DNA of 64,000 nt from a virus. This document shows, in pieces, positions 6,774-61,600 of this stretch; position 1 is the stretch's first letter, and each line of letters opens with the position of its first letter. The position numbers and the translations under genes are program-made. The notes under the pieces are model-generated. The model was not told where the DNA came from. It did not search any database and worked only from the letters and a program-made list of their open reading frames with translations. The DNA lies in IMG/VR virus record IMGVR_UViG_3300010259_000001, positions 2,040 through 66,039 of that record. One strand, 5' to 3'.

Positions 6774-9700
6774 TTATCTATTGGGTTGCTGCATTGGGAT
6801 ATACTTCTGTGTGAAGCCCTGCATCACTGTACCAAGACTATTCATTGCGTCGGCGCGTGTAGAAGCATCGGGGGCTTCAAGCACTTTCACCATAGCCGAT
6901 TTATAGTCAAGGACTGCCTGTCTGCACAATGCAGCTTCATCGGGTGTCTTGGCTCCAAGATAGAACTTCACTATCTTATTGAAATTGCCATCCATCTGCT
7001 TGAACATCTGATAAGTTGCAAAGGCGTTGGGGTCGCTCTGTGCTTCTGCCATCAGTTGTGCTGCCTCCACATAATCGGTCTTCGCCATTTTCTTGGCTTC
7101 TTTCACCTTGGCATCAACACCCTTATACACTTCCTCGTATTGCAGGTAGGCTTCGTTCACTTTGTCATCGCCCATCTGCTCGGTGCGTTCTTTGATGGTC
7201 TTGTTTGCCTTGTCGGTAAACTTCTTGATGCGCTCCTCGTCACCCCATGACCAAGGAGAGAAGAAACGACCACGCTTCACCTTGAACTGGGCATAACGCT
7301 CTGCAAGTTGTGCAGGGGTGTACTTGCTCACTTCGTCACCGCTCAAACCAACCTCGTCGAAATACATCTTGTCGATTTGGCTCTGCGGTACTTGCAAGAT
7401 GCGAGAAATACAGATGATTGCCTCGTGTGCCAGTGTTGGGTCGTCACCACAAGCGTCCATGATAGACAGGGCTACGTCGGTAATGCTCTGTGGGTTCACA
7501 CCGAGACCTGCTTGAACAATGAGGTTAATCATGTCATTCAGTGCCTCTGTGTGCTGACCATTGCCCAATTTTTGGAACGCTGCCATGATGTCGCTTGTCA
7601 GCGGCATGTCCTTACTCAGATAGGCAGGGTTACCCTCACCAGTAAGCATCATCTGTCCTGCTTGGCTCATAAGGTCGCCACCTGTCAGACCCTCGACACT
7701 GCCAAATGTGGTATGCGCCCAAACATCATCCCACATCTTCTGCTTCTCGTCTTCATCATCGCCGAACAGCAGGTATGGCAGATATGCACCCAAGTTCCAT
7801 GCAAGCTGCATAATGTAGCCGAATGTGGCAACGCGCAGGGTATCTTTCAGCAACTGCCGTCTGAACTTGCGCTTGGCAACCTGCTCCTCACGTTGCCAAT
7901 CAGCGTCTGACCAATTACCGTCTGTTTGTGGCTCAATACCCTTGTCACGCAACAGCTGCTTTGTCATAAACTCGATGCTTCCTGCTCGCCCTCCCGGTGT
8001 GAGATTGTGCTTGAAGTTACGGAGTGCATCATGCAACTGTCGCTGATAAGACATAGAGGCATTGCGGAACACTGTGAACAACACGGACAACCAAGACCTA
8101 TCAACCTGCATCGTCGAGGTAAATGCACCCTCGCTTGACTGCTGGGTCTGATTGTAAAGCACCTCTGCATCCTGCACGGCTTTCTTCTCTGCGTCGGCTT
8201 CGCTGTAACCATCACGCAGGTATTGGGCAAGGCGTGTCTGATACATCGAATGTGCGCCGATGCTGACAGTAAGAGCATCGACAAAAGCATTAGGAGACAT
8301 ACCTGCACGGCTTGCAAGTTGCATGAGGCGTGTGCGCCACATCTTCCAGTCCATATCTGATTTCAACAGGCGTGGGTCGCCACTCATACGGCTACGCCAA
8401 CGCTCGCTGAAGATTGGCAGATGCTCCATGCTCCACTTCCATGCTCCAGCAGGGTTGGCAATGTTCCTCAACAAGTAGTCGGTTCTTGCTTCGGGTATGT
8501 ATGCCGGCATGGAAAGGAACTGCTTTAAGGCTGTAAACATTCTGAACGACACCTTTGCTGCCGTTACACCCTTGGCGAAGTTCACTGCGGCTTCATCCAA
8601 CTTGGTACGCGGCGGTCTGTAGGTTCCTGCTGCCATTTGGCAAACGTCGTTAAATTTCTTCCACAACTCTTTACCACTGCCGTAGATGGTAGTCATGTTC
8701 TGAACTTGGTTACGGAAACGCTTGTAGGTGCGCAGCGTGTTGATGTCGCGGTTAAACTCTGCAAAGGCGTTCCAGTGTTCCATCTGTGCCACATGGTCAA
8801 GTATCACGCTCAATGCGTCTGCACCTGTAATGTCAAGGGCAAGGGCATTGCGTCTGCGCTTGATAATGCTGCCAGTAGCGGTGCTGATGCCGTCACTCTT
8901 GTCGGGATTGTCAAGGTCTTCGGGCTTATCGGCACGGGCATTGGCAAGTATCTTCAATGGGAAGTAATGCTCAATAGCGGCCATGGAAGCACCGAACATT
9001 CGCTTGTGCGTCTCGTTGTACTCGTTGCGCGTCTGCACAAGGAACTCGTCTTGCAGCCAGTCGGCAAGTTCTATCAATCGTGGGTCAAGCACTTCTTCGA
9101 TGTCTGCCACATTCTCCTCGGTGATACCCATCTTGCGCAACTTCATACGTCCGTCAAGCATCTTGTTCACAATGTAGATATACATGAGGTTGCCTTGCGT
9201 CAGTTCGCGCTCCTGCATTTCACCACCGTTCCAAAACGACACTGTGCCTTTTGGCAGTTTGCCGACACTACGGATAAGGTCGCCCCACGTCTTCACCTTG
9301 CCACCGAACAACTCTGCTGCTTTGGCATCAAGGATGGCGTATTTGTCGCGCACACCGTTTATTTCTTGCTGACGTGCATCAATCCAGCCTCTCATGAAGC
9401 GGTTATACAGGTAGCCCTCGCCGTTGGCACTCTTGCCTCCGAACATTCTCAACATCTGGTCAAAGGTGGCGAGAGGAGCAAACAGGAACGATACAAATGA
9501 GTTGTTGACGAACTTGTCAGCAAATGTCGGCTTATAATGTTCGTCGCTCGGTCTGCCCTCCATGTCGCTGTTGGCATTGTGCTGTATCTCGCGGATGCGC
9601 TGTTTCTCGGCTTCCTTGAAGTCCTTGGCGTTGGCAATGCTCTCGCGGAGGCTGTCAGACAACCTGCCTACAAGGTCGAAGTAACTCTGCGCTCTCTCAA

Positions 9701-40855: not shown

Positions 40856-41293
40856 ATGAACAGTTATTTTGAAGTCGGAGTCCGCTACGACAAGACAATG
40901 GAAGACGGTGTTATCCGCAAGGTAACAGAGAACTACCTTTTGGATGCTCTCTCTTTCACAGAAGCGGAAAAGCGTGCCACTGAGGAAATGGAAGCCTACA
41001 TCAGCGGAGAGTTCAGAGTGGTAACAGAGAAAATTACCAACATCGCAGAGGTGGTTACTACTGACGATGCGTCTGCAGATAAGTTCTACAAAGTTAAGCA
41101 CAGCCTCATCACCATTGACGAGAAAACCGCCAAAGAGAAGAAGCAAGCGCAGTACATCATTATCCAAGCATCCAGTGTTGATGATGCTCGCGACCGCTAT
41201 AAGCAGCATATCAAAGGCTGGCTCGTTGACGTGGTACTGGAGGCTGTCAGCGAAACGAAGTACATGGATTATTTCCCTTATAACAACAATTAA
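40856..41293 (+). CDS. DUF4494-like protein
   Basis: YFEVGVRYDKTMEDGVIRKVTENYLLDALSFTEAEKRATEEM resembles the Bacteroidota DUF4494 N-terminal block (from memory). Confidence 0.55.
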   Translation: MNSYFEVGVRYDKTMEDGVIRKVTENYLLDALSFTEAEKRATEEMEAYISGEFRVVTEKITNIAEVVTTDDASADKFYKVKHSLITIDEKTAKEKKQAQYIIIQASSVDDARDRYKQHIKGWLVDVVLEAVSETKYMDYFPYNNN

Positions 41294-41306
41294 AAATCAA
41301 AAGACA

Positions 41307-41885
41307 ATGAAAAAGTACATTGGAACAAAGGCCATCATGGCTAAGCCGATGGCAAAGAGTGAAGCAGAGAAAGTGTTGAACCGCAGCCTTGCTGACGCAA
41401 AGGGTGGCGAAGACGGCTACCTCGTCGAGTACCCGGACGGCTACAAGTCATGGTCGCCCAAAGAGACGTTTGAGGAGGCTTACAAGGTTGCTGACACATA
41501 CCTCGACCGTATGCGTATTGAGTATGCAGATGTCAAGGATCGCGTTTTGAAACTGCACACGTTCCTGATGTCTGAGGAGTTCAGAGCATTGCCCAAAGAG
41601 AAACAGGCAAAGTTGCAAGCCCAGTGTGGCGCAATGTCCGCCTATGTCGAAATTCTCGGTCAGCGTATCGACGAGGCTAAGATGGAACAGAAACAACAGG
41701 AGGCTGCACAAGCTGCTGCCGCTGCACAGGAGATGCGTGAAAGCCTTGTCGGTCTCACTATCGTAGAGGCTGGTAAGTGTGACTTCTGCCCAAGCGAGAC
41801 AACCAACTGCAAGAAACTTATCCTTGCCGACGGCTCGCACATCTGCGTGAAAGACATGACTAAACAACCCTCTAAAGCACAGTAA
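41307..41885 (+). CDS. hypothetical protein
   Basis: Internal ATG at 41307 (MKKYIGTKAIMAKPM...), 192 aa. Contains GYLVEYPDGYKSWSPKETFEEAY and a C-terminal CDFCPSETTNC...HIC. Confidence 0.6.
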   Translation: MKKYIGTKAIMAKPMAKSEAEKVLNRSLADAKGGEDGYLVEYPDGYKSWSPKETFEEAYKVADTYLDRMRIEYADVKDRVLKLHTFLMSEEFRALPKEKQAKLQAQCGAMSAYVEILGQRIDEAKMEQKQQEAAQAAAAAQEMRESLVGLTIVEAGKCDFCPSETTNCKKLILADGSHICVKDMTKQPSKAQ

Positions 41886-41887
41886 CC

Positions 41888-42508
41888 ATGAGTAAACAAA
41901 TAACTATCCCTGTTCCCGACGGCAAACGTGCCGAGTGGATTAACGGTGTCCTCACTCTTGTTGACGAGCAGAAAGTAGATAACCGTCCTGTAACAGAACG
42001 TATCAAGACGTTTGATGATGCCTGCAATGCGCTGGGCGATGAGCATCCGCTTGTCACACAATACCGTCTTACTGCTGCCGCATACAAAGGCGACCCCATG
42101 ACGGAAGATTTCATTGCCTACCTCAAACTCCGTATCATCGTTGCTGCTCTCAATGAGGGATGGGAACCGAAGTTCACAGAAGATGAGTACAGATACTTCC
42201 CTTGGTTCTACTTCTATACCAAAGAGGAGTGCGACAAGTTAGACGACAAGGAAAAAGGGCGTTGTGTTCTTCGCTCCGGCGACAGCGCGAACTCGGACTA
42301 CGGCTTCGTGGGCTGCGGCGCGATTAACGGTGCTTCGTTCTCGAGTGCCAGCGGCGGCTCGCGGCTTGCCTTCAGAACTCGTGAACTCGCAGCCTACGCA
42401 GGTAGGCAATTCATCGAGGAATGGGCTGACTTTATGTTTAAGCCTCGCACTGGCGAGGAGTTAAACGGAAAGTCAGAAGCAGCGAAAACCACCATCGACT
42501 TCAAATGA
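41888..42508 (+). CDS. DGR target protein 2 (non-structural context)
   Basis: 206 aa. C-terminal GRCVLRSGDSANSDYGFVGCGAINGASFSSASGGSRLAF is the translated VR2. ATGA-coupled to the next gene. Confidence 0.85.
   Translation: MSKQITIPVPDGKRAEWINGVLTLVDEQKVDNRPVTERIKTFDDACNALGDEHPLVTQYRLTAAAYKGDPMTEDFIAYLKLRIIVAALNEGWEPKFTEDEYRYFPWFYFYTKEECDKLDDKEKGRCVLRSGDSANSDYGFVGCGAINGASFSSASGGSRLAFRTRELAAYAGRQFIEEWADFMFKPRTGEELNGKSEAAKTTIDFK
42257..42376 (+). repeat. DGR variable region VR2 plus IMH-like 3' end
   Basis: 42257-42367 aligns without gaps to the reverse complement of TR 55378-55488 (111 nt). There are 18 mismatches, all at TR adenines, and none elsewhere (hand alignment). GGCTCGCGGCTT+GCCTTCAGA is shared with VR1. 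Confidence 0.9.
42392..42407 (+). other. hairpin 15 nt downstream of VR2
   Basis: GCCTAC-gcag-GTAGGC: 6-bp stem, 4-nt loop. Confidence 0.6.
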
Positions 42509-42702
42509 ATAACGGACGCTTACAATTCTTCAACCTTGTAAAGGCTATGCGTGAGGCGCAAAGGGAATACTTCTCTACGCGCTCTCACGAAGCCTTACAA
42601 AAGGCTCGCTCACTTGAACGTAGTGTAGATGCCTACATCAAGCGTGGCGACGATTATCTTAAAAAACAAAATCAAGAACCAACTTTATTCGATAATGACT
42701 GA
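42505..42702 (+). CDS. hypothetical protein
   Basis: 65 aa, helical and charged. Overlaps both neighbours at start and stop. Confidence 0.5.
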   Translation: MNNGRLQFFNLVKAMREAQREYFSTRSHEALQKARSLERSVDAYIKRGDDYLKKQNQEPTLFDND

Positions 42703-44377
42703 TAATATTAAACTACTATATATAGACCTGTTCTGTGGGGCTGGCGGCACCAGTACAGGTGTTGAAAAGGCAACCTTTCACGGTAGTAAGTGCGCCAAGG
42801 TCATTGCCTGTGTCAATCACGATGCCAACGCTATAGCATCCCACGCTGCCAACCATCCCGATGCACTCCACTTCACGGAGGACATTCGTACACTTGAACT
42901 ATCTCCACTCGTTGCGCACACAGAACGCTTGCGCCTACTTCATCCCGATGCTTACCTGGTACTATGGGCCAGCCTTGAATGTACCAACTTCAGCAAAGCA
43001 AAGGGAGGGATGCCACGCGATGCAGACAGCCGTACACTTGCAGAACATTTGTTCCGATACATCGAGGCTCTGCGTCCCGACTACATTCAGATTGAAAACG
43101 TGGAGGAATTTATGTCATGGGGCGACATGGACGAGAACGGACACCCTATCAGCAAGGACAAAGGAAAGTCGTATGTTCGTTGGGTGAACAACGTCTGCAA
43201 ATATGGCTATTACTTCGACTGGCGCATACTCAATGCTGCGGACTATGGTGCATACACCAGTCGTAAGCGTTTTTTCGGGCAGTTTGCCCTGCATGGTCTG
43301 CCTATCGCTTTCCCCAAAGCCACACATGCCAAATGCCCTGCAAAGTATGAGCATAGCCTGTTCCCTGCCGACAACATGCAGCCTTGGAAGCCTGTGCGCG
43401 AAGTCCTCGACCTCAACGACGAGGGAGAAAGCATCTTCGGGCGCAAGAAACCGCTTGTCGAGAAAACACTGGAGCGTATCTATGCTGGGCTGATAAAGTT
43501 TGTTGCTGGCGGCAAGGAGGCTTTCATCGTGAAGTGGAACAGCGTCAACGGAAAGACAGGCAAGTATGTACCGCCAAGCATCGACGAACCTTGCCCTACT
43601 GTTGCGACACAGAACCGCCTCGGCGTGGCAAAGGTACAGTTCCTAAGCAAACAATTCGGTGGCGACCCAGCAGGAAAGAACATCAGCGTAGAAGAACCTG
43701 CTGGCACAATCACTTGCCGTGACCACCACGCATTTGTATCGGCTCACAATGGTAATGGCTACAACACTTCTGTAGATGCTCCTGCGCCTACGCTTACGTG
43801 TAAAGACCGCCTCGGACTGGTAACAAGCAACTTTCTTGAAATGCAATACGGCAACGGCACACCTGCAAGCACTGACGAACCGGCACCAGCCGTAACCACC
43901 AATCCAAAGCATAATCTTGTCAGCGTGAAGCCGTGGATAATGAACACCAACTATGGCAATGTAGGAAGTTCCATCGACGAGCCATCACAGACGATAACGG
44001 CAAACAGGAAGTGGCACTATCTTATGAACCCACAATTTGCCAACAAAGGAGGCAGCATCGACAAGCCTTGCTTCACGCTCATTGCCCGGATGGATAAGAT
44101 GCCGCCGTATCTTGTCAGCACAAAGGAGGGGCTTACCATTGAGGTTTACGAGACTGACAGTCCTGCAACCATACAAATCAAGGAGTTTATGGCTCTCTAT
44201 TGTATTGCAGACATTCGTATGCGTATGCTTCGTATTCCCGAACTAAAACGTATCATGGGCTTTCCCGAAGATTACACGCTCATTGGCACACAGGCAGAGC
44301 AAAAGAAGTTCATCGGCAATGCCGTTGAGGTGAACATGGCACGTGTCCTTTGCGAAGCTCTTTGCAAAAAACTATAA
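42695..44377 (+). CDS. DNA cytosine-5 methyltransferase
   Basis: Motif I LYIDLFCGAGGTSTG. Motif IV LWASLECTNFS (E-C instead of P-C). ENV IQIENVEEF. NAADYGAYTSRKRFF. Motif X KFIGNAVEVNMA. Start at the internal ATG 42695; 560 aa. Confidence 0.8.
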   Translation: MTDNIKLLYIDLFCGAGGTSTGVEKATFHGSKCAKVIACVNHDANAIASHAANHPDALHFTEDIRTLELSPLVAHTERLRLLHPDAYLVLWASLECTNFSKAKGGMPRDADSRTLAEHLFRYIEALRPDYIQIENVEEFMSWGDMDENGHPISKDKGKSYVRWVNNVCKYGYYFDWRILNAADYGAYTSRKRFFGQFALHGLPIAFPKATHAKCPAKYEHSLFPADNMQPWKPVREVLDLNDEGESIFGRKKPLVEKTLERIYAGLIKFVAGGKEAFIVKWNSVNGKTGKYVPPSIDEPCPTVATQNRLGVAKVQFLSKQFGGDPAGKNISVEEPAGTITCRDHHAFVSAHNGNGYNTSVDAPAPTLTCKDRLGLVTSNFLEMQYGNGTPASTDEPAPAVTTNPKHNLVSVKPWIMNTNYGNVGSSIDEPSQTITANRKWHYLMNPQFANKGGSIDKPCFTLIARMDKMPPYLVSTKEGLTIEVYETDSPATIQIKEFMALYCIADIRMRMLRIPELKRIMGFPEDYTLIGTQAEQKKFIGNAVEVNMARVLCEALCKKL

Positions 44378-44381
44378 GAAT

Positions 44382-45347
44382 ATGGAAATAGAAATCAACA
44401 CCACCTATAACATGGATTGCCTAAAAGGGCTTCGGAATATGGCGGACAATTCTGTGGACTGCTGCATCACATCACCGCCTTATTTCGGACTCCGTGACTA
44501 CTGTGTTGATGGGCAGATAGGTTTGGAGAAGTCGCCAAATGAGTATGTTTCAAAAATGGTTAAGGTTTTTCGTGAAGTGTATCGTGTACTGAAACCGACA
44601 GGCACATTGTGGCTGAATATCGGCGACTGCTATGCTGGAGGCAACAAAGGCGCGGCCGCTTATCCCGATAACGCCAAGAAATATAAGCAGGGAACTAACA
44701 GGGGAACTGTTGGTAACAGGACTGCTTACAGGTATCAGACAACCTGTAAGGATAAAGATTTAATCGGTATTCCTTGGATGCTCGCTTTCGCTCTGCGTGA
44801 TAAGGTTGGTTTCTATCTACGTCAAGATATAATATGGCACAAGCCAAACCCGATGCCGGAAAGTGTTCTTGACCGTTGCACAAAGGCACACGAATACATC
44901 TTCCTGTTCTCAAAGTCCAGTCGCTATTACTTCAACCATGAGGAAATGCAGGAGCAAGCGGTATGTGCTGCCGTTGAACGACAAGAGAACCCACCTCGCT
45001 ATGGTGGCAATAAATACACGGCTACGCCCGACAAGTTCAACCGCACAAAAAGCGGTAATGCCTACGCCTATACAGGCAAGCGAAACAAACGTGACGTGTG
45101 GACTGTCAGCACTAAGCCCGAAAAGAGTGCGCACTTTGCAGCCTATCCGAAAGAACTGATTGAGCCTTGCGTCCTCGCTGGCTGTCCAAATGGCGGTGTC
45201 GTTCTTGACCCTTTTATGGGAACAGGCACTACGGCCATGGTAGCAAGAATGTACGGACGCAACTTTATCGGCTTTGAACTAAATGCCGATTACATGAGTA
45301 TCATCAACAAGAAAATTCAAGTAACACCAAATATGTTTTATCTATGA
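44382..45347 (+). CDS. beta-class N4-cytosine/N6-adenine DNA methyltransferase
   Basis: VDCCITSPPYFGLRDY (motif IV) precedes VVLDPFMGTGTTAMVA (motif I). Start at the internal ATG 44382. Confidence 0.8.
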   Translation: MEIEINTTYNMDCLKGLRNMADNSVDCCITSPPYFGLRDYCVDGQIGLEKSPNEYVSKMVKVFREVYRVLKPTGTLWLNIGDCYAGGNKGAAAYPDNAKKYKQGTNRGTVGNRTAYRYQTTCKDKDLIGIPWMLAFALRDKVGFYLRQDIIWHKPNPMPESVLDRCTKAHEYIFLFSKSSRYYFNHEEMQEQAVCAAVERQENPPRYGGNKYTATPDKFNRTKSGNAYAYTGKRNKRDVWTVSTKPEKSAHFAAYPKELIEPCVLAGCPNGGVVLDPFMGTGTTAMVARMYGRNFIGFELNADYMSIINKKIQVTPNMFYL

Positions 45348-45796
45348 AAACCTATTATCTTACATTATCAAAAGTATTCCCATCTACCCATGCCAAGGCA
45401 GGTATGAATACATGCTTTGAGGAGAAACTTCGCGTATATAAGTTGCACACCATCAGAGCAAATTATGAGTATTGGAAGAAACGCTTTGAGCAAATTGCCG
45501 CTGGCGAGGCTTGCCTTTCCATCCGTCAGTGGGTTGGCAAACCTTATGGAAAAGGTTCTACACAACGAGAGATAGTCCGTCTTACTCGTGAAGATGGTAT
45601 CGGCATACAGAAACTGAGAATTTATGAGCATGAGCCTTTCCCAGTTGTGTATGCTGATAGGTACACTACGCCTGTTGACTGGCAGGAACTCGCAAACAAC
45701 GATGGGCTTTCTCTCAATGACTGGCGAGAGTGGTTCAAAGGTTACGACCTCACAAAGCCAATGGCAATCATTCACTTTACACCATTCAGATATTAG
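45344..45796 (+). CDS. hypothetical protein (ASCH/PUA-like, speculative)
   Basis: 150 aa, with YKLHTIRANYEYWKKRF. ATGA overlap with the methyltransferase stop. Confidence 0.55.
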   Translation: MKTYYLTLSKVFPSTHAKAGMNTCFEEKLRVYKLHTIRANYEYWKKRFEQIAAGEACLSIRQWVGKPYGKGSTQREIVRLTREDGIGIQKLRIYEHEPFPVVYADRYTTPVDWQELANNDGLSLNDWREWFKGYDLTKPMAIIHFTPFRY

Positions 45797-46709: not shown

Positions 46710-49472
46710 ATGATTAAAGAACTACAATACAAAGGATATGCCACTGAACCGTCAGACTATGAATGTCCCGACGGTCAGTTGGCTACGTCCTTGAACCTCA
46801 TCAATGAGGATAGTCAACTCAAACCAGTATTCCAGCCGTCTGAACTTGCAGAACTTCCAAGCGGCTATAAAGTAGTGTATATTCACGACACCAACACGTT
46901 CACCCATTACATTCTGCTCAACACAAGCACAAACAAATTGTATTGGATTGACGAAAGCATCATCACGGATGGTGCCGTAAAGCCTGTGTCAAGTGCGACG
47001 ATTGAAACGGAACTGGCTCAGACAAGCCCAAGCCGTGAACTCTATTCGTTTGGTTCAACTGAAATCTACAATGTCAATGGCATCGGTAACACGCTGATTG
47101 TTCTTACCGCCAATGGTATGCACTACCTGCTTTGGAAAGGCGACACAGAGGGATATCTGTATCTTGGTACACATCTACCCGAATTGCCTATCTCGTTTGG
47201 GTTGCAAGGCGAGGTGGTGCGCACTGACGTATTCAGTATTTCTTTTAATGGCATCGGCGAGGGCAGTCTTTGGAATGAATTTTCCGATGAAAACAAATCA
47301 CGCATAACAAGTCAAGTGCTGGCAAAGGTAAACAAGTTCATTGCTGACCAATCAACCAACGCTGGTAAATTCATCTTTCCTTTCCTTGTACGGTATGCTT
47401 ACAGGTTGTATGATGGTTCTCTTACTATGCACTCTGCGCCTATTCTCATGGTATGTTCTTCCGACCTCGCTCCACAGGTATTTTGGGAGCATGTAACAGG
47501 ACATGGCGAATATACCGATGCGCAGTTGCGTGTTGTTGGTGTAAGGCATACTCTTGACTATGCTGTTGTACTGGCTTCCCGTATTGATATGCTAAGACAG
47601 TGGAAAGATATTGTGCACTCAGTTGACATCTTTATCTCAAAGCCTATCTACACATACGACCAAAACGGACAATGCACAAGGTTCGCACAGTCAAGCGAAA
47701 TTAACTCTTTCTGTATCTGTAAGCACATCAATCAAGCTGCTGATACAAACACATACCCTTTGCGATACCAGTACAATACATTTAACAAGTTGTATGCGTT
47801 CACTTACAACCCGACAACTTTCACATACCCCTCTGGACGCTTGATGATACCGCAGCGTAGCACTGACCAGGTGAAATCCGATATACGTTCATGTTCCCAG
47901 TTCTATCTACTCAAAAGCATCAAGTTAGACGAACTGACAACTACGCGCACGGCTGTTTCCGTTGAAGAAGATTATTTGCAATCTCTTGTGAATAGAGAGG
48001 TTATGACAGACGACTTTGACAGTCATGATGTATTGATACCGCAATACTCTTTTGCATATAACTCACGACTGAACATTGCCAATCTAAAAAAGAAACTTTA
48101 CGATACTTTCAATGCCGGAGCAATGTTCTGTTATACCGATGGCTATGTTCAGAACTTTTCTAACGATTCACCAACTATTATTGACCGCAAAGCCTCATGG
48201 GGTGTCTATTTCTTCATAAAGCAGGACGGACGCGACATCATTGTGCAGGGAGAGGCTTTTGTTATGAGTGTGCAAGCGCGTCTATTATTTTTCTATTATC
48301 CAAACGTCAACGCATATAAGGCAGTATTCTACCGATATGATAACTTCTATGATGCCTACGAGGTGCCACTGGAGGCACACGGTTTCCTAAATGGAGCATT
48401 TTATTTTGGTGGATGGGATAACGCCACAAAAACTACATCATTGCCGTCTGAGTCAAGTGAGGCAATACGCACAATAGATGTTCCCAACAAAATCTACACC
48501 TCCGAAGTCAATAACCCATTCCACTTCCCTGTTTTGGGCATCAACACCGTAGGTACTGGCACCATCCTCGGCATATCTGCTGCGGCAAAAGCAATGTCGC
48601 AAGGTCAGTTCGGACAGTTCCCACTATACGCTTTCACCACTGAGGGCGTTTGGGCGTTGGAGGTGTCTTCCACTGGCTCATACTCTGCACGTCAGCCTAT
48701 CACGCGAGACGTGTGTATCAATACTGACAGCATTACGCAGATAGATAGTTCAGTTCTCTTTGCCACAGACAGGGGCATTATGCTTATCAGTGGTTCACAG
48801 ACACAGTGCATCACGGATAACATCTTCAGCGAAGCACCGTTCAATGTGCTTGACCTGCCCGGCATCGGCCAACTACACACAAAACTCGGACACTCTGCAG
48901 ATGCTTGTCTGCCCATGAAGCCGTTCCTCGGTTTCCTTGCAGGGTGTCAGATGGTTTACGACTATGTGCATCAGCGTATCTTTGTGTATAACCCTACAAA
49001 GGAGAATGTCACACCCAAATACACATACGCCTACGTCTTCTCTCTCAAATCGAAAATGTGGGGCATGGTGTTCACAAACCTTGCATCAACCATCAACGCA
49101 TATCCCGAAGCACTGGCAATGACACACGATAACAAACTGGTGTCATTCTCCGAAACCGACGAGCAGGTGTGCAAGGGTCTTTACATTACCCGACCGCTCA
49201 AACTGGAGGCTGCCGATGTTCATAAGACAATCTCCGCACTCATCCAGCGCGGACACTTCCAGCGTGGCGATGTCGGCACGGTGCTGTACGGCTCACGCGA
49301 CCTTTTCTCTTGGCACCTCGTTTGGTCTTCAAAAGACCATTACCTGCGTGGGTTCAGAGGTACACCATACAAGTATTTCCGAATAGCAGGATTGGCGACA
49401 CTCACCGATGGCAAGTCCATCTTCGGCGCATCAGTCAACTTCGAGCCTCGCCATACAAACCAGTTACGATAA
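46710..49472 (+). CDS. large hypothetical protein (920 aa)
   Basis: Last gene of the rightward transcription unit. Beta-rich sequence (VNNPFHFPVLGINTVGTGTILGISAAAKAMSQGQFGQFPLYAFTTEGVWALE). No assignable motif. Confidence 0.75.
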   Translation: MIKELQYKGYATEPSDYECPDGQLATSLNLINEDSQLKPVFQPSELAELPSGYKVVYIHDTNTFTHYILLNTSTNKLYWIDESIITDGAVKPVSSATIETELAQTSPSRELYSFGSTEIYNVNGIGNTLIVLTANGMHYLLWKGDTEGYLYLGTHLPELPISFGLQGEVVRTDVFSISFNGIGEGSLWNEFSDENKSRITSQVLAKVNKFIADQSTNAGKFIFPFLVRYAYRLYDGSLTMHSAPILMVCSSDLAPQVFWEHVTGHGEYTDAQLRVVGVRHTLDYAVVLASRIDMLRQWKDIVHSVDIFISKPIYTYDQNGQCTRFAQSSEINSFCICKHINQAADTNTYPLRYQYNTFNKLYAFTYNPTTFTYPSGRLMIPQRSTDQVKSDIRSCSQFYLLKSIKLDELTTTRTAVSVEEDYLQSLVNREVMTDDFDSHDVLIPQYSFAYNSRLNIANLKKKLYDTFNAGAMFCYTDGYVQNFSNDSPTIIDRKASWGVYFFIKQDGRDIIVQGEAFVMSVQARLLFFYYPNVNAYKAVFYRYDNFYDAYEVPLEAHGFLNGAFYFGGWDNATKTTSLPSESSEAIRTIDVPNKIYTSEVNNPFHFPVLGINTVGTGTILGISAAAKAMSQGQFGQFPLYAFTTEGVWALEVSSTGSYSARQPITRDVCINTDSITQIDSSVLFATDRGIMLISGSQTQCITDNIFSEAPFNVLDLPGIGQLHTKLGHSADACLPMKPFLGFLAGCQMVYDYVHQRIFVYNPTKENVTPKYTYAYVFSLKSKMWGMVFTNLASTINAYPEALAMTHDNKLVSFSETDEQVCKGLYITRPLKLEAADVHKTISALIQRGHFQRGDVGTVLYGSRDLFSWHLVWSSKDHYLRGFRGTPYKYFRIAGLATLTDGKSIFGASVNFEPRHTNQLR

Positions 49473-53061: not shown

Positions 53062-53358
53062 TCAACTATGATGTGGGGTGTCGTAGTTAAAGTAGTATCT
53101 TCCGAATAGGCGCGTGCTGATATAGTAAAGCAAGGCTATCAGCGTGAACCATGTGAGCGCATAGGGGTTACGGCTCTGACGAGTTGATATTTTCTGCATA
53201 TTGAGAAACAGGTTCGTGTCTGCTTCCTTGCGCTGTTCCTCACCACCTCCCTTGTCATACTCGTTGTCATGCAGCACGCACGCTGCATAATACTTCTTGG
53301 CGTATGGGGGCTTGATATATTTCAGCAGACCTTTGGCACAACCGCAACCGTTACTCAT
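53062..53358 (-). CDS. small HD-motif protein with C-terminal TM segment
   Basis: 98 aa. YYAACVLHDNEYDKGG...RKEADTNLF, then LTWFTLIALLYYISTRLF. Confidence 0.55.
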   Translation of the reverse strand: MSNGCGCAKGLLKYIKPPYAKKYYAACVLHDNEYDKGGGEEQRKEADTNLFLNMQKISTRQSRNPYALTWFTLIALLYYISTRLFGRYYFNYDTPHHS

Positions 53359-53848
53359 AGTTCGACATATCTAAACTGTCCTTTTCTGCCCAGCCCTCAT
53401 TGAGACACTGGTTAATGTAGGCGACTGCAGACGTGTAGAAGTCCGTGAAGTCCTCCATGTTTTCAAAGGTGTGGTACACGGCTTTGCCCTCTGCGTCTTC
53501 ACCAAGTTTGAACTTAATAGGCAACATGGCACCACCCATCTGCATATTGAGGTCGAACGCTGCCTTGAAGTTGTTTTGGTTCTCAGCACTCAAATACACA
53601 CGGATGCCTTTCCATGCAAAGCCGTTCAGTATCTTTTCGTCTGTATTGGCGTTGATGGTGTCAATGATAAGGTATTTAACCTCGCTGACGGTGGGCTTAT
53701 AGTCCAGCGTCTGACGGTAGTTATATCCTGTGCCTCCGTCCATGCCGAAGCCATAGAATACTTCCCAGCGTTTACGACCTATCTGCTGTATGCCGTCTCT
53801 GCGTTCTGATGCTCCATAAATCTTTTCCATGCCGCAAAGATACGACAT
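53351..53848 (-). CDS. hypothetical protein (DUF4376-like, speculative)
   Basis: 165 aa directly downstream of the RT. Not helical-bundle-like, so not an Avd. Confidence 0.6.
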   Translation of the reverse strand: MSYLCGMEKIYGASERRDGIQQIGRKRWEVFYGFGMDGGTGYNYRQTLDYKPTVSEVKYLIIDTINANTDEKILNGFAWKGIRVYLSAENQNNFKAAFDLNMQMGGAMLPIKFKLGEDAEGKAVYHTFENMEDFTDFYTSAVAYINQCLNEGWAEKDSLDMSNYE

Positions 53849-53880: not shown

Positions 53881-55224
53881 TCATGAGAACTTATACTTTA
53901 CCTTGCCTCCGTCAAACACTTCACTGACAATCGTGGTTTCAAATGGGAAACCGTCTTCGATGTCGCTGATTTGGTCGAGGATATTCTTCATTTCCTCAGA
54001 TGCTGTAAAGAACTTGCCCCAGTCGCCTGTCTGCTTGTCACGGAAACTTACCACATAGCGGTCTTCACCCTGCGATGTGTTGATGCCAGTCTCGTAGTCA
54101 TGCACTTCAATAGTTTTGTTCACGATTGCGCCCAAGCGCATTGTCTTACCGGGAAAGCGTTTCTTTCCGTCGGCAGGGGTGTAACTAACACCCATTTCGC
54201 TAAACTTTTTCATTTTCTGATTTGTCAATTTATAAAACAAGTGTTTACAATCAGCATGGCAAGCCATGCCTTTGAATGAGCCAATAATCTCTTGCCGACG
54301 TTTCCGCGACTTCACCTTTGCCAGTTTCCTTGCTGCTTTCTGCTTGATACGCTTGCGCAATAATGAATGGGTGCCATAATGCACATAGCCAAGAAAGTCC
54401 AGTCCAACGTCCAGCGGTCGCACCGCCTCCGATGGCTTAACCTCCAAACCGAGACGTGCCACTGCTGCTATATGAATGTTGCGCAACTCCCACAATTCTT
54501 TTTTCGTGCTGGCAAGCATTACGGTATCATCGCAATACCTGTAATACAAATAATGTGTCTCACCGCCCTTTTCATAGTGTTTAACGTATTTCAGCATTTC
54601 ATGGTCAACCTCATTCAGATAGAGGTTGGCGAAACACTGCGAGGAACGAAGACCCTTTGACAAGCCTTGTGGCATGAGCGTAATGAAACTGTCAAGGATG
54701 GGTAGCAGTATCGGGTCTGAAACATACTTCCTTATTATCTGCATCATCCGCAGTTGGTCGATGCTGTCATAATAATGGTGTATGTCGTTCTGATAGTAGT
54801 ATTGTGATTGTTCGGGAGCATTGGTAAGGTCTTCCTCTACGACGTGGTGCAGCCAGTGCATACCACGTCCCTTGATGCTTGCTGCCGTGTTCTTGATGAG
54901 CGTAGGGTATGTGTACTTCTCTATCACTACCATGATGGCATGGATGCCAACACGCTTCACTACCGTTGGGGCTTGCACATCGCGCTCTTTGTAGCCCTCA
55001 GTTACATGCAGGTCGCGAACATCGCTACGCACAATACGAAAAGAACCTGCACTGATTTCTCTGCGTAGGCTCTCTATTATCGTCAGACGTTTAGGTCTGT
55101 ACATTTCCCGTTGTCTTGGATGTTCAAGGTGACTGATAACGTAGTCGAAACTTTCACCCATGTTCTCCTCGCTGACAATTTCGGGAATTAGATTGTCGAG
55201 AGGAAATCTAATGTCATAGTCCAT
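53881..55224 (-). CDS. DGR reverse transcriptase
   Basis: 447 aa. LSKGLRSSQCFANLYLNEVDH (DGR-type G-x-x-x-SQ block) and YLYYRYCDDTVMLAS (Y-x-DD). TR lies 150 nt upstream on the same strand. Confidence 0.9.
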   Translation of the reverse strand: MDYDIRFPLDNLIPEIVSEENMGESFDYVISHLEHPRQREMYRPKRLTIIESLRREISAGSFRIVRSDVRDLHVTEGYKERDVQAPTVVKRVGIHAIMVVIEKYTYPTLIKNTAASIKGRGMHWLHHVVEEDLTNAPEQSQYYYQNDIHHYYDSIDQLRMMQIIRKYVSDPILLPILDSFITLMPQGLSKGLRSSQCFANLYLNEVDHEMLKYVKHYEKGGETHYLYYRYCDDTVMLASTKKELWELRNIHIAAVARLGLEVKPSEAVRPLDVGLDFLGYVHYGTHSLLRKRIKQKAARKLAKVKSRKRRQEIIGSFKGMACHADCKHLFYKLTNQKMKKFSEMGVSYTPADGKKRFPGKTMRLGAIVNKTIEVHDYETGINTSQGEDRYVVSFRDKQTGDWGKFFTASEEMKNILDQISDIEDGFPFETTIVSEVFDGGKVKYKFS

Positions 55225-55374: not shown

Positions 55375-55489
55375 GGTAAGCCGCGAGCCGTTGTTGGTAT
55401 TCGAGTTCGAAGCATCGTTATTCGCGTTGCAGTTCACGAAGCCGTTGTTCGAGTTCGTGTTGTTGCCGGAGCGAAGAACACAACGCCCA
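55375..55489 (-). repeat. DGR template repeat (TR)
   Basis: The coding-sense copy is Asn-codon rich (29 adenines in the 111-nt core by my count). It is identical to VR1 and VR2 at every non-adenine position. Confidence 0.9.
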
Positions 55490-55663: not shown

Positions 55664-58600
55664 CTACTCAACGAACTCGATTTCGCCTCTGAAGGCAAGC
55701 CGCGAGCCGCAGTTGGTATTCGAGTTCGAAGCATCGTTATACGCGACGCAGTACACGAAGCCGACGTACGAGTTCGTGACGCCGCCGGAGCGAAGAACAC
55801 AACGCCCAGTTGAAGCGGAGTAGTATTGACCATCACAATAATAGGTGTTGTAATTGGAATTAGACACCGTCTTACTCGGCACAACATCACAGAACCGTCC
55901 ATGTCGGACACGACAAACTTCTTGGTCGGAATTGTTTACGCCTTGCACGGCTCGTTCCGTACCATCTGCCATTCTGATGCGCCAGATATGGTCAACAACG
56001 CTGCCGCTTGGCACTTGGCTCTTGTTCTTCTTGTAGGCATCGAAACTTGCAACATTCACAGCCACATTGTCCATCCACTCCCATGCACAACCCCACCAGT
56101 CTTCAAGTCCTAATGTGCGAGGTCTGCCGGTAGTTGTCTCATAGAAAGGCGAACGGTTTGCGCCATCCGTCGTACCTGTATTGACCACACCAACGCCGAC
56201 ACCATTCACGGCTTGCGAGTTTCTGCGTCCGTGAATAGCCATCCACAGGTTAGCGATGTCCTTGTGCATTTCGTAGTCCACAAGTTGATAACCCTTGCCA
56301 CGGCACTGCACGATGTTTTGGAAGTCCTTGCAAGTGAAGTTCAGACTGGTGCCAGCCTGTGGCAGGTTATTCGTCACGTTGCCGTTCTCGTCGTACTTCC
56401 AAATGTTGCTGGTGCTTGAAGTGCCTGTGCCTCGCTTTGGTATCGCACCGCTGATGGAACGAAGACGGTTGAGGTTATCAACACTTCCTTTGTACACGCC
56501 AATTAGTTCAAACTGGTGTTCCACCCAGTCGGGTTCAATGGCTTCAACGGCTGCACTATCTACAGCGATGCACTCTAAATCGTCGTAGCCCTGTGGTGTG
56601 CAGAACACGAACTTGGCTGCACCTGCCGGCACATCGACAAAGACATATTCACCTTGTACGAAATCGCTGTTGGCGTGAGTGATGTAGGTGTAAACGGTGC
56701 TAATCACCTTGTCATTCTTGTCAAGGAACACTGCACCGATAAGGTTGCTGTTGATACCAGGCCACCTTACCTGCTTCATGTTCTCTACATCCATGCTGTA
56801 AACATTGTTGGCACTGCTGTCTGTCAAATTGTCAGCATCGAACACATCGCCAACATTGAAGTTGCCGACATATACACTTGAAAGACTTTTCACTAACAGG
56901 TTGCTCAACGTGTCTCGGTTTACGTTACGAGCGGTAGAACTTGGAGTATTTGTTTCTGTTGAGAAAGCAATATACTTCTTATTGTTCACATGGTCGTTGA
57001 TACCCTTGTACCAGTAGTGAGGCAAGCCAAGGAACAAGTCGTAACCAGTACCATTAGTGTCTGTAATGTCAAGGTCAAGACCGTTGGCAAGGTGGTACAG
57101 GTCACTGTCACTTACCTGCTCCAACTGCATCTTATTGGTACTTTCATTGAAAGTTCCTTTATATACATGCAACTGGCTTTGCAGTTTGGTGATGTGTCCG
57201 CTTGGGATATAACCGTCGTCAACGCCGTCAGTGGTATTGTTGTCGAGGTTTCGGATATTGCCGTCAAACTCCATTGCATCGTCAAACTCTATCAACGTAT
57301 ATTGCGCATTGTATAGCGTGAGGTTCGGGAAGTATGCTACAAGATTGGCAAAGATGGCATCCTCAACGAGGTTGCTCATAATCCAACTGCCGTTCATGCC
57401 GTCGCAAACATTTGTCTGCTCACTTCCTATTCCGCGAGTGCCAAGGCTCTGCATGGTTTCAAGGGTTCTGCTGTTGCCTGTCATATCGTAACTGTCTATC
57501 TGCACTTCTGCAAGACGTGCGCCAGCATTGATAACATCGGCAAGCAACTGTTGCGCGTCTATGCTCGGGCAACCGCTTAACTGTATGCGAGTGACGTTCG
57601 CCAATCCATCAAATGATACACCGCCATTGGGATAGCCAAGACTGGGCAGGTTCACGAATGACAGTTCCGTCATGCTTGATGGCAAAGTCAGCGTCTGCAA
57701 GGGTGACGATTGCGCAGAACTGAAAGAGCGAAGCGAGCTGCCGCTTGCCTGTACTTTCTTCAAGCGTGGGCAACCACTGGCATTCAGCGTCAGCACCTTG
57801 GTATTTCTGATGTCTATCTCTTCTAAGAATGGCATCTGTCCGAGGCTCAACGCTGACAGTATGTCGTCGGTGTACGATGGCGTATAACTCTCTCCACCGA
57901 TGATGAGTTTCCGCAATAGCGTACAGTCGGCTATAACCCAGTTGCTGTTTTTCGGTGTACAGCCGCTTAAATCAAGTTCGCTCAGTTTATCAGCACCGAA
58001 GATATAGATAAGTTTACCACCGACACCTGCAGCAGCCTCAGTAAAGGTGTGGCTCTCACCTGCGCGCAGATAGCATGAATACTTTGCGCTGCTGGTGCTG
58101 TCAACGCCCATGCCAAAGTAACCGTCCTGTGCTGCCGTAATCTTCACGGTGATGGCTCCCATCACACGCGCTTGGAAGAAATGCTTGAACAGGTCGCCTG
58201 TCTGATAGTAGCCGTCGCGGTAGGCGAAACGCTTGCGCTGGAATGCTGGCAGACTTTCAAGACGCAAACCGTGCAGTGCCGGATAGTGGTTGTCTGCTGC
58301 CGTCGCGGTCTCGATATACTTGCGCTGGCCGTCGAAGCTGCTCACTACCTTTGCCCACTTCAAGATGCGGTTTGTCATCCAGTAACGGTAGCTGCCTGCT
58401 GCACTGAATATCTCCAGTCCTGCGCCTGTCTTGGCAGAACGCATGGCGGCGGCGGTATTATGCAAGGTCAGTTGTGTGCCGTTATCATCAATCCAAACGC
58501 CCTCGCCTCTTTCAAACAGGGCAAACGACTGGCGGAACATCACACCGTCCCAACCTTGGTACAGGTGGCTGTTCGCTCCGTCCATATCCCAAGGGATAGT

Positions 58601-61600
58601 CAGATAACAGTCGTTGTCGGCCTCGTCAACACTATCACCATCATACCAGTGGTTGAAGTAGTAGCGCATGTTGCCGTCAGTCTCTTTATAGACTGCTATC
58701 ATCATGTTCTTGGCTCGCTGGTCAACGGTAGCCTTATAATCCGATGCCACAATATAGTGGTTCGTGCTGTAAGGGTTGAAGTAGTGGTGCATCTCATGCT
58801 GCCACTTCAACAGACGGTTGGTCTTGGTTCCTGCTACGGTATTGCCGTCAAGGGTGATGGTGAGCGATGCACCGTCACCGTTGAAAATCTTTTCGCTGCC
58901 GTCGGGGTTCAGTGCGGCATTCTCTTCGTGGTCGTCCGTGAGGTTCTGATTACACTGCTGACAGAATAACAGTTCACGGAACAACTGATAAGGTACCTTT
59001 CTACCCTGTGCGTACAGGTCGTTCAAATCATCATCGTCGGGGTAACGGCTCTCGTAGTATGTTGACCAGATAGGCACGTCGCCATCATCGGTGTGCAGCG
59101 TTTCAAGCATATCATCGACGCTGTTCACACCCTGCTGCCAACAGAACTCTTGATACTGGCGATACTCGTAACACTCAACAGGGTTAAGCACTCTGCCTAC
59201 AATCACCCACTTGCCAGTGCTGCTCTCGTAGGTCATGCTGCCTGTGGTGTCGCGCCATACGCCACCAGTGTACTTGTAGTACTTGCCGTCGGTGCTGCGA
59301 TAGACAGTTGCCCAGTCGTAATCGCTGACATCATCTGCAGCAATCTCTGCGCCTGTTTTGTCAACCTCAACGAACTCGGCTACGGCATCGGTCTCTGTCA
59401 TGGCTCCTGTGCCGTCGTTCTCTATGAAGCGCGTCTCGGGGCCACAGAACTCACTAATCATATAGAGCATTCCGGGGATAAGCGATGCTGAACCAGCAAG
59501 CACCGTTGCCTTGTAAGCGTCAATGTTGGTGCCTCGCGGTGTAACAATCTCCTTGAAATCGCCATAGTTCACACAGCCCTTGTTGTAGCCAGGCACATCT
59601 TCGAAGCCGAAGAAATGGGGGTTGCCCTTGTCGGCATTGAAGTTAGCCTTGCTGTGGAAGTAGGCGTTTTCGGGAAGCGTAGCGGCCTCGGAACCTTTCT
59701 CCTGTCCGATGCGGTAGTCCGTGCGGAACAATGCACAGGTAACACCATCAATGGAGGTGTGCAGCTCCTCGCTGCTATCAGTGTTGAATATCTGTGCAGG
59801 GGTCATGTAGTTTCTACCCAAGGCAATCTGAACATCATTCATCTGCTCCATCAGTGCACAGTTATTCGCACCGGCACTGTCCGAATAGTCCACCTTGATA
59901 GTGATGGTGCTGATAGGGGTGCTGCCGTCCTTGATGCGTATCTTCTTCTTTGCAGCGAGTTTCACTGCCTCGTCGTACTTGGCAAGAATGGTTTCGTCGC
60001 CATTATACATCTTGCTGACCTCTTCGCGCGTATGCAGCATGACAATGCGCTTGGCTTTCTTTGCCTTGCCTTTCTTGTTCTTGATTGCGTAGGCAAGTGT
60101 AGATGTACCTTGGTTCGTAACGGGGATAGCCTCAATCATACAGTCTGCCCAAGGACGGTCGGGGAAGTACAGATACCAGTCCATAAGCACCTGTGTCTTC
60201 TTGTCCTTGATATTCTCGATATAGTCGGGATAGTATATCTCGCTATCCGTCACGGCTGCACCGTCCTTGCTCAGATTGGCATCAGAAGTGCGTGTCTCAA
60301 CACAAACCATCACACCACGGTCAATCAACTTCTGCATATCGGGGCGAGGTTTCGTCACACCCTCTGCCGTAATGTCTGCCATCACTTGGTTCTGCTCATA
60401 CTCGGTAAGCATAGCCTGCGTGTCGGTAAGGTTCACGATGTAGTTGTTGAATGCCTGTATAAAGTCATAGTAGGTGTTCCAGCGCACAATCTCATATAGA
60501 TAAAGGTCGGCATCACTGCCGTCAAAGTGGATGGTGTCGCCAAATACAGGGAATGCGCTGCTGGTGTCTATTGGCACACAAGCAGCCATATCACCGTTTT
60601 GGAAGACTTTGCAAAGCATCACTCCACTGTAAGGAGCGCGTGCTTGCGGCTCTATCACGATGTCAAATCGGTACACCACATCGTCAAGATATGAGGTCGC
60701 GGCTGTTGTATGTACGTTGGCGAGTGCCTCATCGCTATCACCGTTTGTAGTGACGATGAACTTCTCACCAGTAAGCACGAAGCCGAGACGCTCACCAAGA
60801 CACTTGATGATATGAGCGTTTCGCTTAGCGATGTTCTTCACCTTGAACGTCATTGAAAGAGCAAGTCCATTGGTAGGGATAGAGGTGCTGGCAAAAGGCT
60901 GGTCGGTACACTCTGCAGTGACGTTCTCTGCCACACGTAGCGACATGCGACCACCGCTCTGCTCGGTACCGAACGTATCAAGCACAAAGCCGTTGGTGGA
61001 GTAGTTCGAGCCGGTAACAACAATCTCTTTCTCCGTGCCGTCGGTGGCTTGGGTCTTGATGGTCTTGTCGGTGTCGGTGTTGCTCCTACCTGCGAGGCTT
61101 ATCTTATACAAGGCTCCCTCGGTCTCGGCAATATCCAGCAGCGAACCGTTGACAAGCACCTCGCGCGTCTCTGCCAAAGAGGCAACGCCGCAGGTGGCAT
61201 CGAAAGTAAGAGTGTCGCCCTGACTGTAACCAACGACGCGCTTCTCTATCGTGTAGTACCTGTTGCGGTACATAGAACTCTCACTAAGGGTCTCTGTCGT
61301 GTCTGTGGTCTCGTTGGTCATGGTAACCTCTACGACGCATGGGTTCTTGCTACGTTGGTAGCAGGCAAGGTCTATCTTCAGAGTCTCAAAGAGTTTCACT
61401 TCGCCGTCGCTGTCGTCGCTCCATCGTGCCACAACAATAGGCTTGTCGTAGTCGGCAACTTCCTCACGCTGCTCTATCACCATCACTGCGGTATGCAGCA
61501 CGTTACCTCGCGTGCCGCTGGCTACGTCGGTACCCTGTATGCGGATGGGGTATGCACCATGTCCTAACCCTGTCGGGTCGATGCTCACATTGTGGGGATA

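Follow-up and report, generated by a model that had tools for sequence, protein, structure and literature searches.

Almost all known targets of phage diversity-generating retroelements (DGRs) are receptor-binding tail proteins. Why, in that case, would a phage DGR also write into a small gene that lies among replication genes, far from the retroelement and on the other strand, and what might the product of such a gene bind? The question is raised by a 64,000-nt stretch of the IMG/VR virus record IMGVR_UViG_3300010259_000001 (positions 2,040 to 66,039 of that record), which we call the window and whose own numbering we use throughout. It carries a single DGR, with a template repeat (TR), a reverse transcriptase (RT) gene and an adjacent target gene containing a variable repeat (VR1), all on the minus strand; a second variable repeat (VR2) lies in a short gene on the plus strand. 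We put the probability at roughly 0.72 that VR2 is an active, non-adjacent target of this DGR, and that its product is an early, soluble binding protein whose ligand is more likely to be intracellular than a receptor. The argument turns on these elements:

41888-42508, plus strand: target gene 2, an open reading frame (ORF) of 206 aa taken from the ORF list and its translation; family phrog_11581.
42257-42367, plus strand: VR2, the variable repeat of the second target, which aligns to the TR without gaps; it spans codons 124-160 of target gene 2.
42356-42376, plus strand: a 3' homology boundary resembling an initiation of mutagenic homing (IMH) site, GGCTCGCGGCTT and then GCCTTCAGA, as in VR1 and unlike the TR.
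55378-55488, minus strand: the TR, which contains 29 adenines and lies 153 nt upstream of the RT gene.
53881-55224, minus strand: the DGR RT, 447 aa in a single frame (RVT_1, E 8e-8; also NCBIfam and PADLOC RT models).
55697-55807, minus strand: VR1, the variable repeat of the adjacent target; all 13 of its 13 mismatches to the TR fall at adenines.
55664-63913, minus strand: target gene 1, 2749 aa, with VR1 ten codons before the stop.

Laid against 42257-42367 on the plus strand, the reverse complement of the TR aligns over 111 nt without a gap and differs at 18 positions, all 18 of them TR adenines. The aligned template comprises 29 adenines and 82 other bases, and the chance of every VR2 mismatch landing on an adenine is ~1.2e-13. 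Relative to the TR, the substitutions are 14 A>G and four A>T. In the VR2 reading frame, each of the 29 template adenines occupies codon position 1 or 2 (in AAC, AAT, ACN and GAT codons). VR1 and VR2 differ from one another at 20 positions, their contents being independent, and VR2 lies 13,011 nt from the TR, in the opposite orientation. Realignment thus bears out most of the original prediction for this locus, which had been made from the letters alone: a gap-free match with no change at the 82 non-adenine positions, an end shared with VR1, and a second target about 13 kb from the TR and inverted, in a gene for a 206-aa protein. It had also placed VR2 at the C-terminus of that protein, and here it needs correcting, since 46 residues (161-206) follow the repeat, and these are conserved in the phrog_11581 family.

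Three copies of the 12-mer GGCTCGCGGCTT are present in the window (in the TR, VR1 and VR2), against 0.31 expected, and a fourth copy of the repeat is therefore absent. After it, VR1 and VR2 both read GCCTTCAGA, and the TR reads ACCAGCAAGA. The feature tested was a 3' boundary common to both VRs and different in the TR (where it is termed IMH*), and the three sequences are consistent with a putative boundary of this kind. Because relatives carry G or A directly after the 12-mer, the TR adenine at that place is probably still inside the mutagenised stretch.

Is VR2 still being rewritten? A homologue search over 5.8 billion proteins gave 6378 clusters (90% identity), and diversity was assessed in the best 120 of the 6378 (86-100% identical to the 206-aa protein, mostly singletons). 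Among these 120 representatives, entropy is 2.47 bits at the 16 adenine-containing codons, compared with 0.10 at the remaining 21 codons of the VR and 0.13 in the rest of the protein; outside the VR, the aligned homologues are nearly invariant. Almost every residue found at the adenine-containing codons (1912 of 1915) can be reached by A>N changes from the TR codons of the window, and K, E, Q, M and W are missing there. At the DNA level, the VR2 of 11 related contigs departs from the window TR mostly at adenines. A dead target, fixed across isolates, had been named beforehand as the outcome that would speak against the locus, and the entropy values show the reverse. Judged from sequences of different samples, VR2 is actively diversified in nature.

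One contig should be mentioned separately. In IMGVR_UViG_3300026549_000532 (entered twice in our set, as L013 and L177), the VR2 at 8813-8923 has two differences from the window TR, neither at an adenine, and the contig stops ~50 nt past the repeat. This VR2 is probably an assembly join with TR reads; an unmutated homing event is less likely.

The 206-aa protein is a member of a large family. It matches the phrog_11581 profile with an E-value of 2.8e-51 (residues 27-186 against profile positions 35-194 of 200), and an exhaustive HMMER search for this family gave 1538 clusters at 50% identity. Among 80 IMG/VR loci that carry a family member, 12 extend past an RT homologue far enough to include the TR as well. 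The VR pairs with a repeat in 11 of the 12, with all mismatches at adenines in seven and at least 90% of them at adenines in four; the twelfth (L049) gave a partial alignment, with 12 of 17 mismatches at adenines over 79 nt. In the testable viral loci the TR has one of two placements: ~9.5 kb off on the opposite strand or, on the same strand, ~4.5 kb upstream. Including the sequenced phages LoVEphage and BT-TP2, 13 testable relatives pair with a TR, nine of them with adenine-only mismatches. By tblastn against GenBank phages, homologues 37-52% identical are present in LoVEphage, PV4-TP1, BI-TP1 and BT-TP2. Among species-representative genomes, a scan picked out 202 with a relative, nearly all of them Bacteroidales (Prevotella, Bacteroidaceae, Muribaculaceae, Rikenellaceae and Porphyromonadaceae); a near-identical copy of the target is on a 141-kb Prevotellaceae contig. 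By profile membership and TR pairing, phrog_11581 is a dedicated DGR target family (~190-210 aa) of several unrelated Bacteroidales temperate-phage lineages.

The closest published parallel is in LoVEphage (MW660583), which encodes a 194-aa homologue that is 37-41% identical over ~80% of its length and falls in the same phrog family. Its VR is at the same place in the protein and, as in the window, on the strand opposite to the TR and RT, >10 kb away. This VR has 17 mismatches to its own TR, 17 of 17 at adenines, and the VR in the tail-collar fibre of the same phage has 11, all at adenines. The TR/VR sequences are distinct (CVLRSG... in the window, LVLWGG... in LoVEphage). A second DGR target nested among defence genes has been reported for Quimbyvirus (Benler 2021, PMC8008677). 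We infer that LoVEphage and Quimbyvirus are the same phage, because both are reported to be ~95% identical to the same B. dorei prophage, and in that case the second target already published and the 206-aa protein are homologues.

The window phage itself is a different matter. It carries an integrase, RecT, two giant ORFs and a portal of the P22-like type. The nearest cultured phages are the Bacteroides phages BS-TP4 and BKO1-TP3, whose portals are 67-69% identical to that of the window. Searching the window by tblastn with the large terminase subunit (TerL), portal and major capsid protein of LoVEphage gave nothing at E 1e-3. Among seven LoVEphage proteins compared, only the RT (31%), the fibre C-terminus (26%) and the 206-aa protein (40%) found matches. 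The RT is split over three overlapping frames in LoVEphage/Quimbyvirus, whereas that of the window is one 447-aa ORF. We therefore reject a Quimby-like or Quimbyviridae assignment for the window phage; the original prediction had pointed to that family as one with DGR targets among defence-related genes, which is correct as regards the published second target. Since the backbones are unrelated, yet the RT, fibre C-terminus and target match, the DGR and the small target appear to move together between unrelated phage backbones.

BT-TP2 (PQ571279.1), a cultured B. thetaiotaomicron phage of the TGPI collection, carries a family member ~41-52% identical to the window protein, and its VR has 10 mismatches to its own TR, 10 of 10 at adenines. 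Here the target is on the same strand as the TR and ~4 kb away, just after the integrase and cI/cro-like genes, in contrast to the inverted, 13-kb arrangement of the window. The BT-TP2 record has a ~140-nt terminal duplication, and the target gene is split over 44865-45224 and 1-~300; because of this split over the record ends, the second target is missing from the annotation. Non-adjacent DGR targets within the same prophage are common and well established (Wu 2018, PMC5758913). Large DGR surveys have missed targets such as these because only RT-adjacent regions were examined, and the survey of Roux (2021) was blind to them by design.

The position of target gene 2 is the basis for considering its product early. 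Two nucleotides separate its ATG from the upstream stop, and it has an ATGA overlap with the next ORF. The upstream genes, co-oriented and tightly packed, encode an SNF2 helicase, a Lin1244-type replication initiator, a DnaC-like loader, a DUF4494 protein and a crAss001_48-like protein. The gene therefore sits, as originally predicted, in a replication/early block on the strand opposite to the structural genes. Three features lie immediately downstream:

42505-42702, plus strand: a 65-aa helical ORF (phrog_15937), translationally coupled to the target gene; motif FF.LV..MR.AQ.EYF...LE..VD.
42629-44377, plus strand: a C5 cytosine DNA methyltransferase (PF00145, E 3e-29), a variable insert, absent there in the Prevotellaceae relative L001.
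44343-45347, plus strand: an N6/N4 DNA methyltransferase (PF01555, E 5e-55), a variable insert, absent in L001 and in a second relative, L002.

Target gene 2 had been described as directly upstream of the two methyltransferases, but the 65-aa ORF comes between the gene and the first of them. The setting had also been called defence-adjacent, and this description is weakened by the relatives: the upstream replication block is the same in L001, L002 and the window, whereas the number of methyltransferases downstream of the target is zero, one and two, respectively. For a census of neighbours, we counted the ORFs of 140-750 aa lying up to 4 kb from the gene, using 39 dereplicated viral loci. Downstream (103 ORFs) there were three C5 and two N6/N4 methyltransferases, and upstream (136 ORFs) two C5 methyltransferases among the listed families; by a tblastn panel, at most 8 of the 39 loci have methyltransferases within 10 kb. 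Commonly found nearby are RecT, SMC/AAA_23 ATPases, metallo-beta-lactamase nucleases, DUF4494, integrases and Lin1244_N, and further SNF2, PIF1 and ResIII helicases. We rejected methyltransferase linkage as a general feature because there is none in L001 and it is rare across the 39 loci; the defence-adjacent setting is thus one of some genomes only, and the constant setting of the family is an early replication/recombination module.

In the mechanism that we propose, the TR would be transcribed together with the RT gene from the minus strand, and the RT would copy the TR RNA into complementary DNA (cDNA), misincorporating opposite template adenines. The cDNA could then replace any stretch bearing matching 5' homology and a GC-rich 3' boundary. 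There would be two such acceptors, VR1 in the 2749-aa fibre-like protein beside the cassette and VR2 13 kb off on the other strand, each rewritten independently of the other. It is established that DGRs work in this way, with TR RNA reverse-transcribed with adenine errors and the cDNA replacing a VR that has a matching boundary, also in trans at non-adjacent sites (PMC5758913). In target gene 2, a conserved scaffold would display the 16 randomisable codons, followed by the conserved helical tail. By analogy with other DGR targets, the soluble product, made with the replication/recombination (early) genes, may bind through its variable surface a ligand that varies from host to host or from strain to strain; a protein of the host or of a competitor, met inside the cell, is more likely than a cell-surface receptor. 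The timing of expression, the cellular location and the nature of the ligand are what we infer here. A general anti-defence role that has no link to methyltransferases would be compatible with this reading.

The likeness to Bordetella phage BPP-1 (PMC5758913) lies in the adenine-specific, mutagenic retrohoming from TR to VR, the GC-rich 3' boundary, which is not the same in VR and TR, and the AAC-rich template codons. However, BPP-1 (Mtd, Avd, TR, bRT) has one target, whereas the window has two, one of them inverted and 13 kb away. Also unlike BPP-1, the window has no recognisable Avd, VR2 is internal rather than C-terminal, and the second target, whose scaffold shows no recognisable C-type lectin fold, belongs to a replication module rather than to the tail.

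What does the 206-aa protein itself tell us? It is an acidic protein of 23.3 kDa (isoelectric point 5.0), with no match in Pfam (E up to 10), NCBIfam or PADLOC; a megablast of 41000-45400 against GenBank phages matched nothing. It lacks similarity to structural PHROGs and any Ig-like, Fn3 or fibre-like domain, and it has neither a signal peptide nor a membrane segment (maximum 19-residue hydropathy 1.06). The phrog_11581 consensus consists of an N-terminal scaffold (PVTERIKTFEDAC.ELG ... AYLKLRII.AALNEGWEP.F ... RYYPWF.LYT), a middle stretch of ~37 residues with a DGR-like composition, and a conserved tail (GSRLAFK..ELA.YAG.QF..IWADF). In two AlphaFold2 runs (88 and 142 sequences), the scaffold was modelled with a predicted local distance difference test (pLDDT) score of >90 at residues ~30-120 and 160-185, and it is largely helical. 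By Foldseek against BFVD, the models matched uncharacterised phage proteins only, and PDB searches by sequence with both family profiles gave noise only. FGE-type-like motifs (TFxDAC..LG, YPWF, V.R.G...GSRLAF) were recognised by eye from the sequences only, and no tool confirmed a C-type lectin fold. A scaffold common to the VR1 domain and the 206-aa protein was also considered but not shown: with hhalign, only 43 VR columns of the two families align, BLASTP likewise finds only the VR, and homology is limited to that stretch.

Several points weigh against VR2 encoding the binding surface of an early intracellular protein. The VR2 region has a pLDDT of <50 in both AlphaFold2 runs, and Foldseek of the models against PDB gave no match with E <2 and nothing lectin-like. 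A lectin-fold pocket lined by VR residues had been proposed as a check on the locus, and the outcome is divided, with a confident scaffold and nothing lectin-like from Foldseek, Pfam or PDB. Because the VR is unmodelled and no lectin-like fold was recovered, the term "binding surface" rests on analogy with other DGR targets. The diversity of VR2 was measured between samples and not within one population, and the evidence as a whole consists of sequence comparison between assemblies and predicted models. Among ORFs surrounding the cassette, no Pfam match to an Avd-like gene was found; accessory genes are missing from 29% of surveyed DGRs (Wu 2018, PMC5758913). In 80 bacterial-genome loci with a family member, the TR lies mostly beyond the 10-kb flank, and the TR search there is uninformative because the flank is shorter than the usual VR2-TR distance; the statement that the family is always a DGR target thus applies to the testable subset only. 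Finally, a place in the early/replication module is compatible with packaging of the 206-aa protein into the virion.

This last point leads to the alternative that survives best, although we consider it unlikely: the 206-aa protein might be an adhesin, secreted or attached to the virion, whose gene happens to lie outside the structural block, with VR2 widening host or mucus binding as VR1 would. The second phage DGR targets that have been studied in detail, the tentaclins of small Firmicutes myoviruses, are predicted virion adhesins, and like target gene 2 they are second genes on the same TR with an unclear function (PMC10743442). In the BT-TP2 lineage, moreover, the gene is ~2.6-4.5 kb from the DGR cassette and on the same strand, and the conserved C-terminal helical tail (residues 161-190, pLDDT >90) could, on the predicted model, serve as an anchor. 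However, tentaclins are proteins of 313-649 aa encoded inside the cassette, with an N-terminal lectin domain, Ig-like domains of which the C-terminal one is conserved, and a capsid-anchoring domain (PMC10743442), none of which the window protein has. We exclude that target 2 is itself a tentaclin, given its 206 aa, its helical C-terminus and the absence of Ig/Fn3 domains. Against an adhesin of any kind is the co-oriented packing of the gene among replication/recombination genes in several unrelated phages, as well as the lack of a signal peptide, an Ig-like or fibre-like domain and structural PHROG similarity noted above.

Co-variation between the two repeats bears on the same alternative. In the window lineage, VR1 and VR2 agree at 17 of 42 co-mutated sites, compared with 40.5% between genomes; this absence of co-variation argues against a shared ligand, and the two repeats do not seem to be selected for the same one. 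One lineage does share VR1/VR2 substitutions above expectation, which would favour an adhesin: five contigs of IMG/VR 3300045988 (L018, L020, L025, L029 and L032) have the same base at 19 of 26 co-mutated adenine sites, compared with 47.5% between contigs. This signal comes from five contigs of one dataset and is uncorrected, and candidate causes of the excess are co-selection, a shared cDNA, VR-VR conversion and assembly chimerism.

A second alternative, which we find somewhat less probable still, is that the 206-aa protein is an anti-restriction or counter-defence factor working with the adjacent methyltransferases, which is how the published notes read such targets. Two methyltransferase genes do begin ~120 nt downstream in the window, Quimbyvirus/LoVEphage carries methyltransferases and RtcB nearby (the window neighbourhood has no RtcB), and four cultured Bacteroidota prophage species have a second, distal VR near counter-defence genes (Nature 2025, PMC12629997). 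The census does not support this link as a general feature: L001 has no adjoining methyltransferase and L002 has one, and methyltransferases account for only 5 of 103 downstream and 2 of 136 upstream ORFs. PADLOC, too, has no match for the protein. That VR2 is a relic no longer rewritten, or an assembly or recombination product between repeats, is very improbable, since apart from the nearly TR-identical VR2 at the end of contig L013, which does resemble an assembly join, hundreds of independent assemblies have differing VR2 sequences with changes confined to adenine-containing codons in an otherwise invariant protein, the reading frame is intact, and the same arrangement is found in the cultured phage BT-TP2.

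An actively rewritten second target with an early, soluble and probably intracellular product is thus the explanation that we prefer. More tentatively, phrog_11581 as a whole might be a dedicated class of intracellular, DGR-randomised binders (an "intrabody"), with a scaffold not recognisable as a C-type lectin fold, moving with the DGR among Bacteroidales phages, expressed early, and binding a strain-variable defence or replication protein of the host or a rival phage; this wider proposal is possible, but we would not yet favour it.

Some features of the region remain to be described. Within target gene 2, past the repeat, there is a small palindromic element:

42392-42407, plus strand: inverted repeat GCCTAC-GCAG-GTAGGC, with a 6-bp stem, 25 nt past VR2 and within coding sequence (AAYAGR).

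It is retained in close relatives and in loci L036 and L042, but it is not conserved family-wide and no compensatory changes were seen in it among the family members compared; on these grounds we dropped the hairpin as a defining feature. The 65-aa ORF has a 60-aa homologue after the LoVEphage target gene, and homologues lie directly downstream of the target in L002 and in 10 of the 39 dereplicated loci; one copy is at L003:8511-8690. It was rejected as an obligate partner because it is missing in L001 and adjacent in just these cases. The gene before the target (41067-41885, plus strand) encodes 272 aa with a crAss001_48-related domain (PF21825, E 9e-17), and close relatives have a 150-aa ORF in its place. 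The plus-strand block ends with a 920-aa ORF (46710-49472, plus strand; phrog_32516) with no Pfam match and faint similarity to an internal virion protein; in 13 of the 39 dereplicated loci a homologue follows the VR2-family gene at a distance of 1-4.4 kb.

In the cassette, the motifs KGLRSSQCFANLYL, GLRSSQ (GxxxSQ) and YCDD are visible in the RT sequence. The GxxxSQ motif is characteristic of DGR RTs. The C-terminal ~125 aa of the RT (53881-54260, minus strand) form an extension past the RVT_1 match, which covers residues 107-265 of 447. One further gene belongs here:

53351-53848, minus strand: DUF4376 gene (PF14301, E 5e-7), directly downstream of the RT gene.

The RT-DUF4376 order is also found in L001 (19339-19818) and BT-TP2 (L166:42256-42750), and the DUF4376 gene may be an accessory gene of this DGR lineage. 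Target gene 1 is presumably a tail fibre or host-recognition protein; relatives share its C-terminal domain with hypervariable columns, and in related TGPI Bacteroides phages, DGR targets of ~2000 aa have been called potential tail proteins (PMC12694917). In IMGVR_UViG_3300045988_068249 (L183), VR1 is 27 nt shorter than its TR and VR2 is full length. Outside the cassette, the P22-like portal gene and a 386-aa ORF flank a single ORF of 6696 aa (6774-26864, minus strand), which at 20 kb makes up ~30% of the genome.

Both the phenomenon of a distal second target and this protein family had already been noticed in the literature for gut Bacteroidales phages. What we add is that the published cases and the window case belong to one protein family, large and nearly restricted to Bacteroidales phages, whose members pair with a TR in every case open to checking, and that the family crosses unrelated backbones together with the DGR, its conserved company being replication/recombination genes and not methyltransferases. 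The idea of intracellular use was raised by Benler (2021) and in Nature (2025); as cultured phages (BT-TP2 and LoVEphage lysogens) carry the family, the question of the ligand is open to experiment. If target 2 is indeed soluble, non-structural and hypervariable, phages would be using targeted hypermutation inside the cell as well. And should the "intrabody" proposal prove true, the phage would adapt its interface inside the cell as quickly as it adapts its tail fibre.

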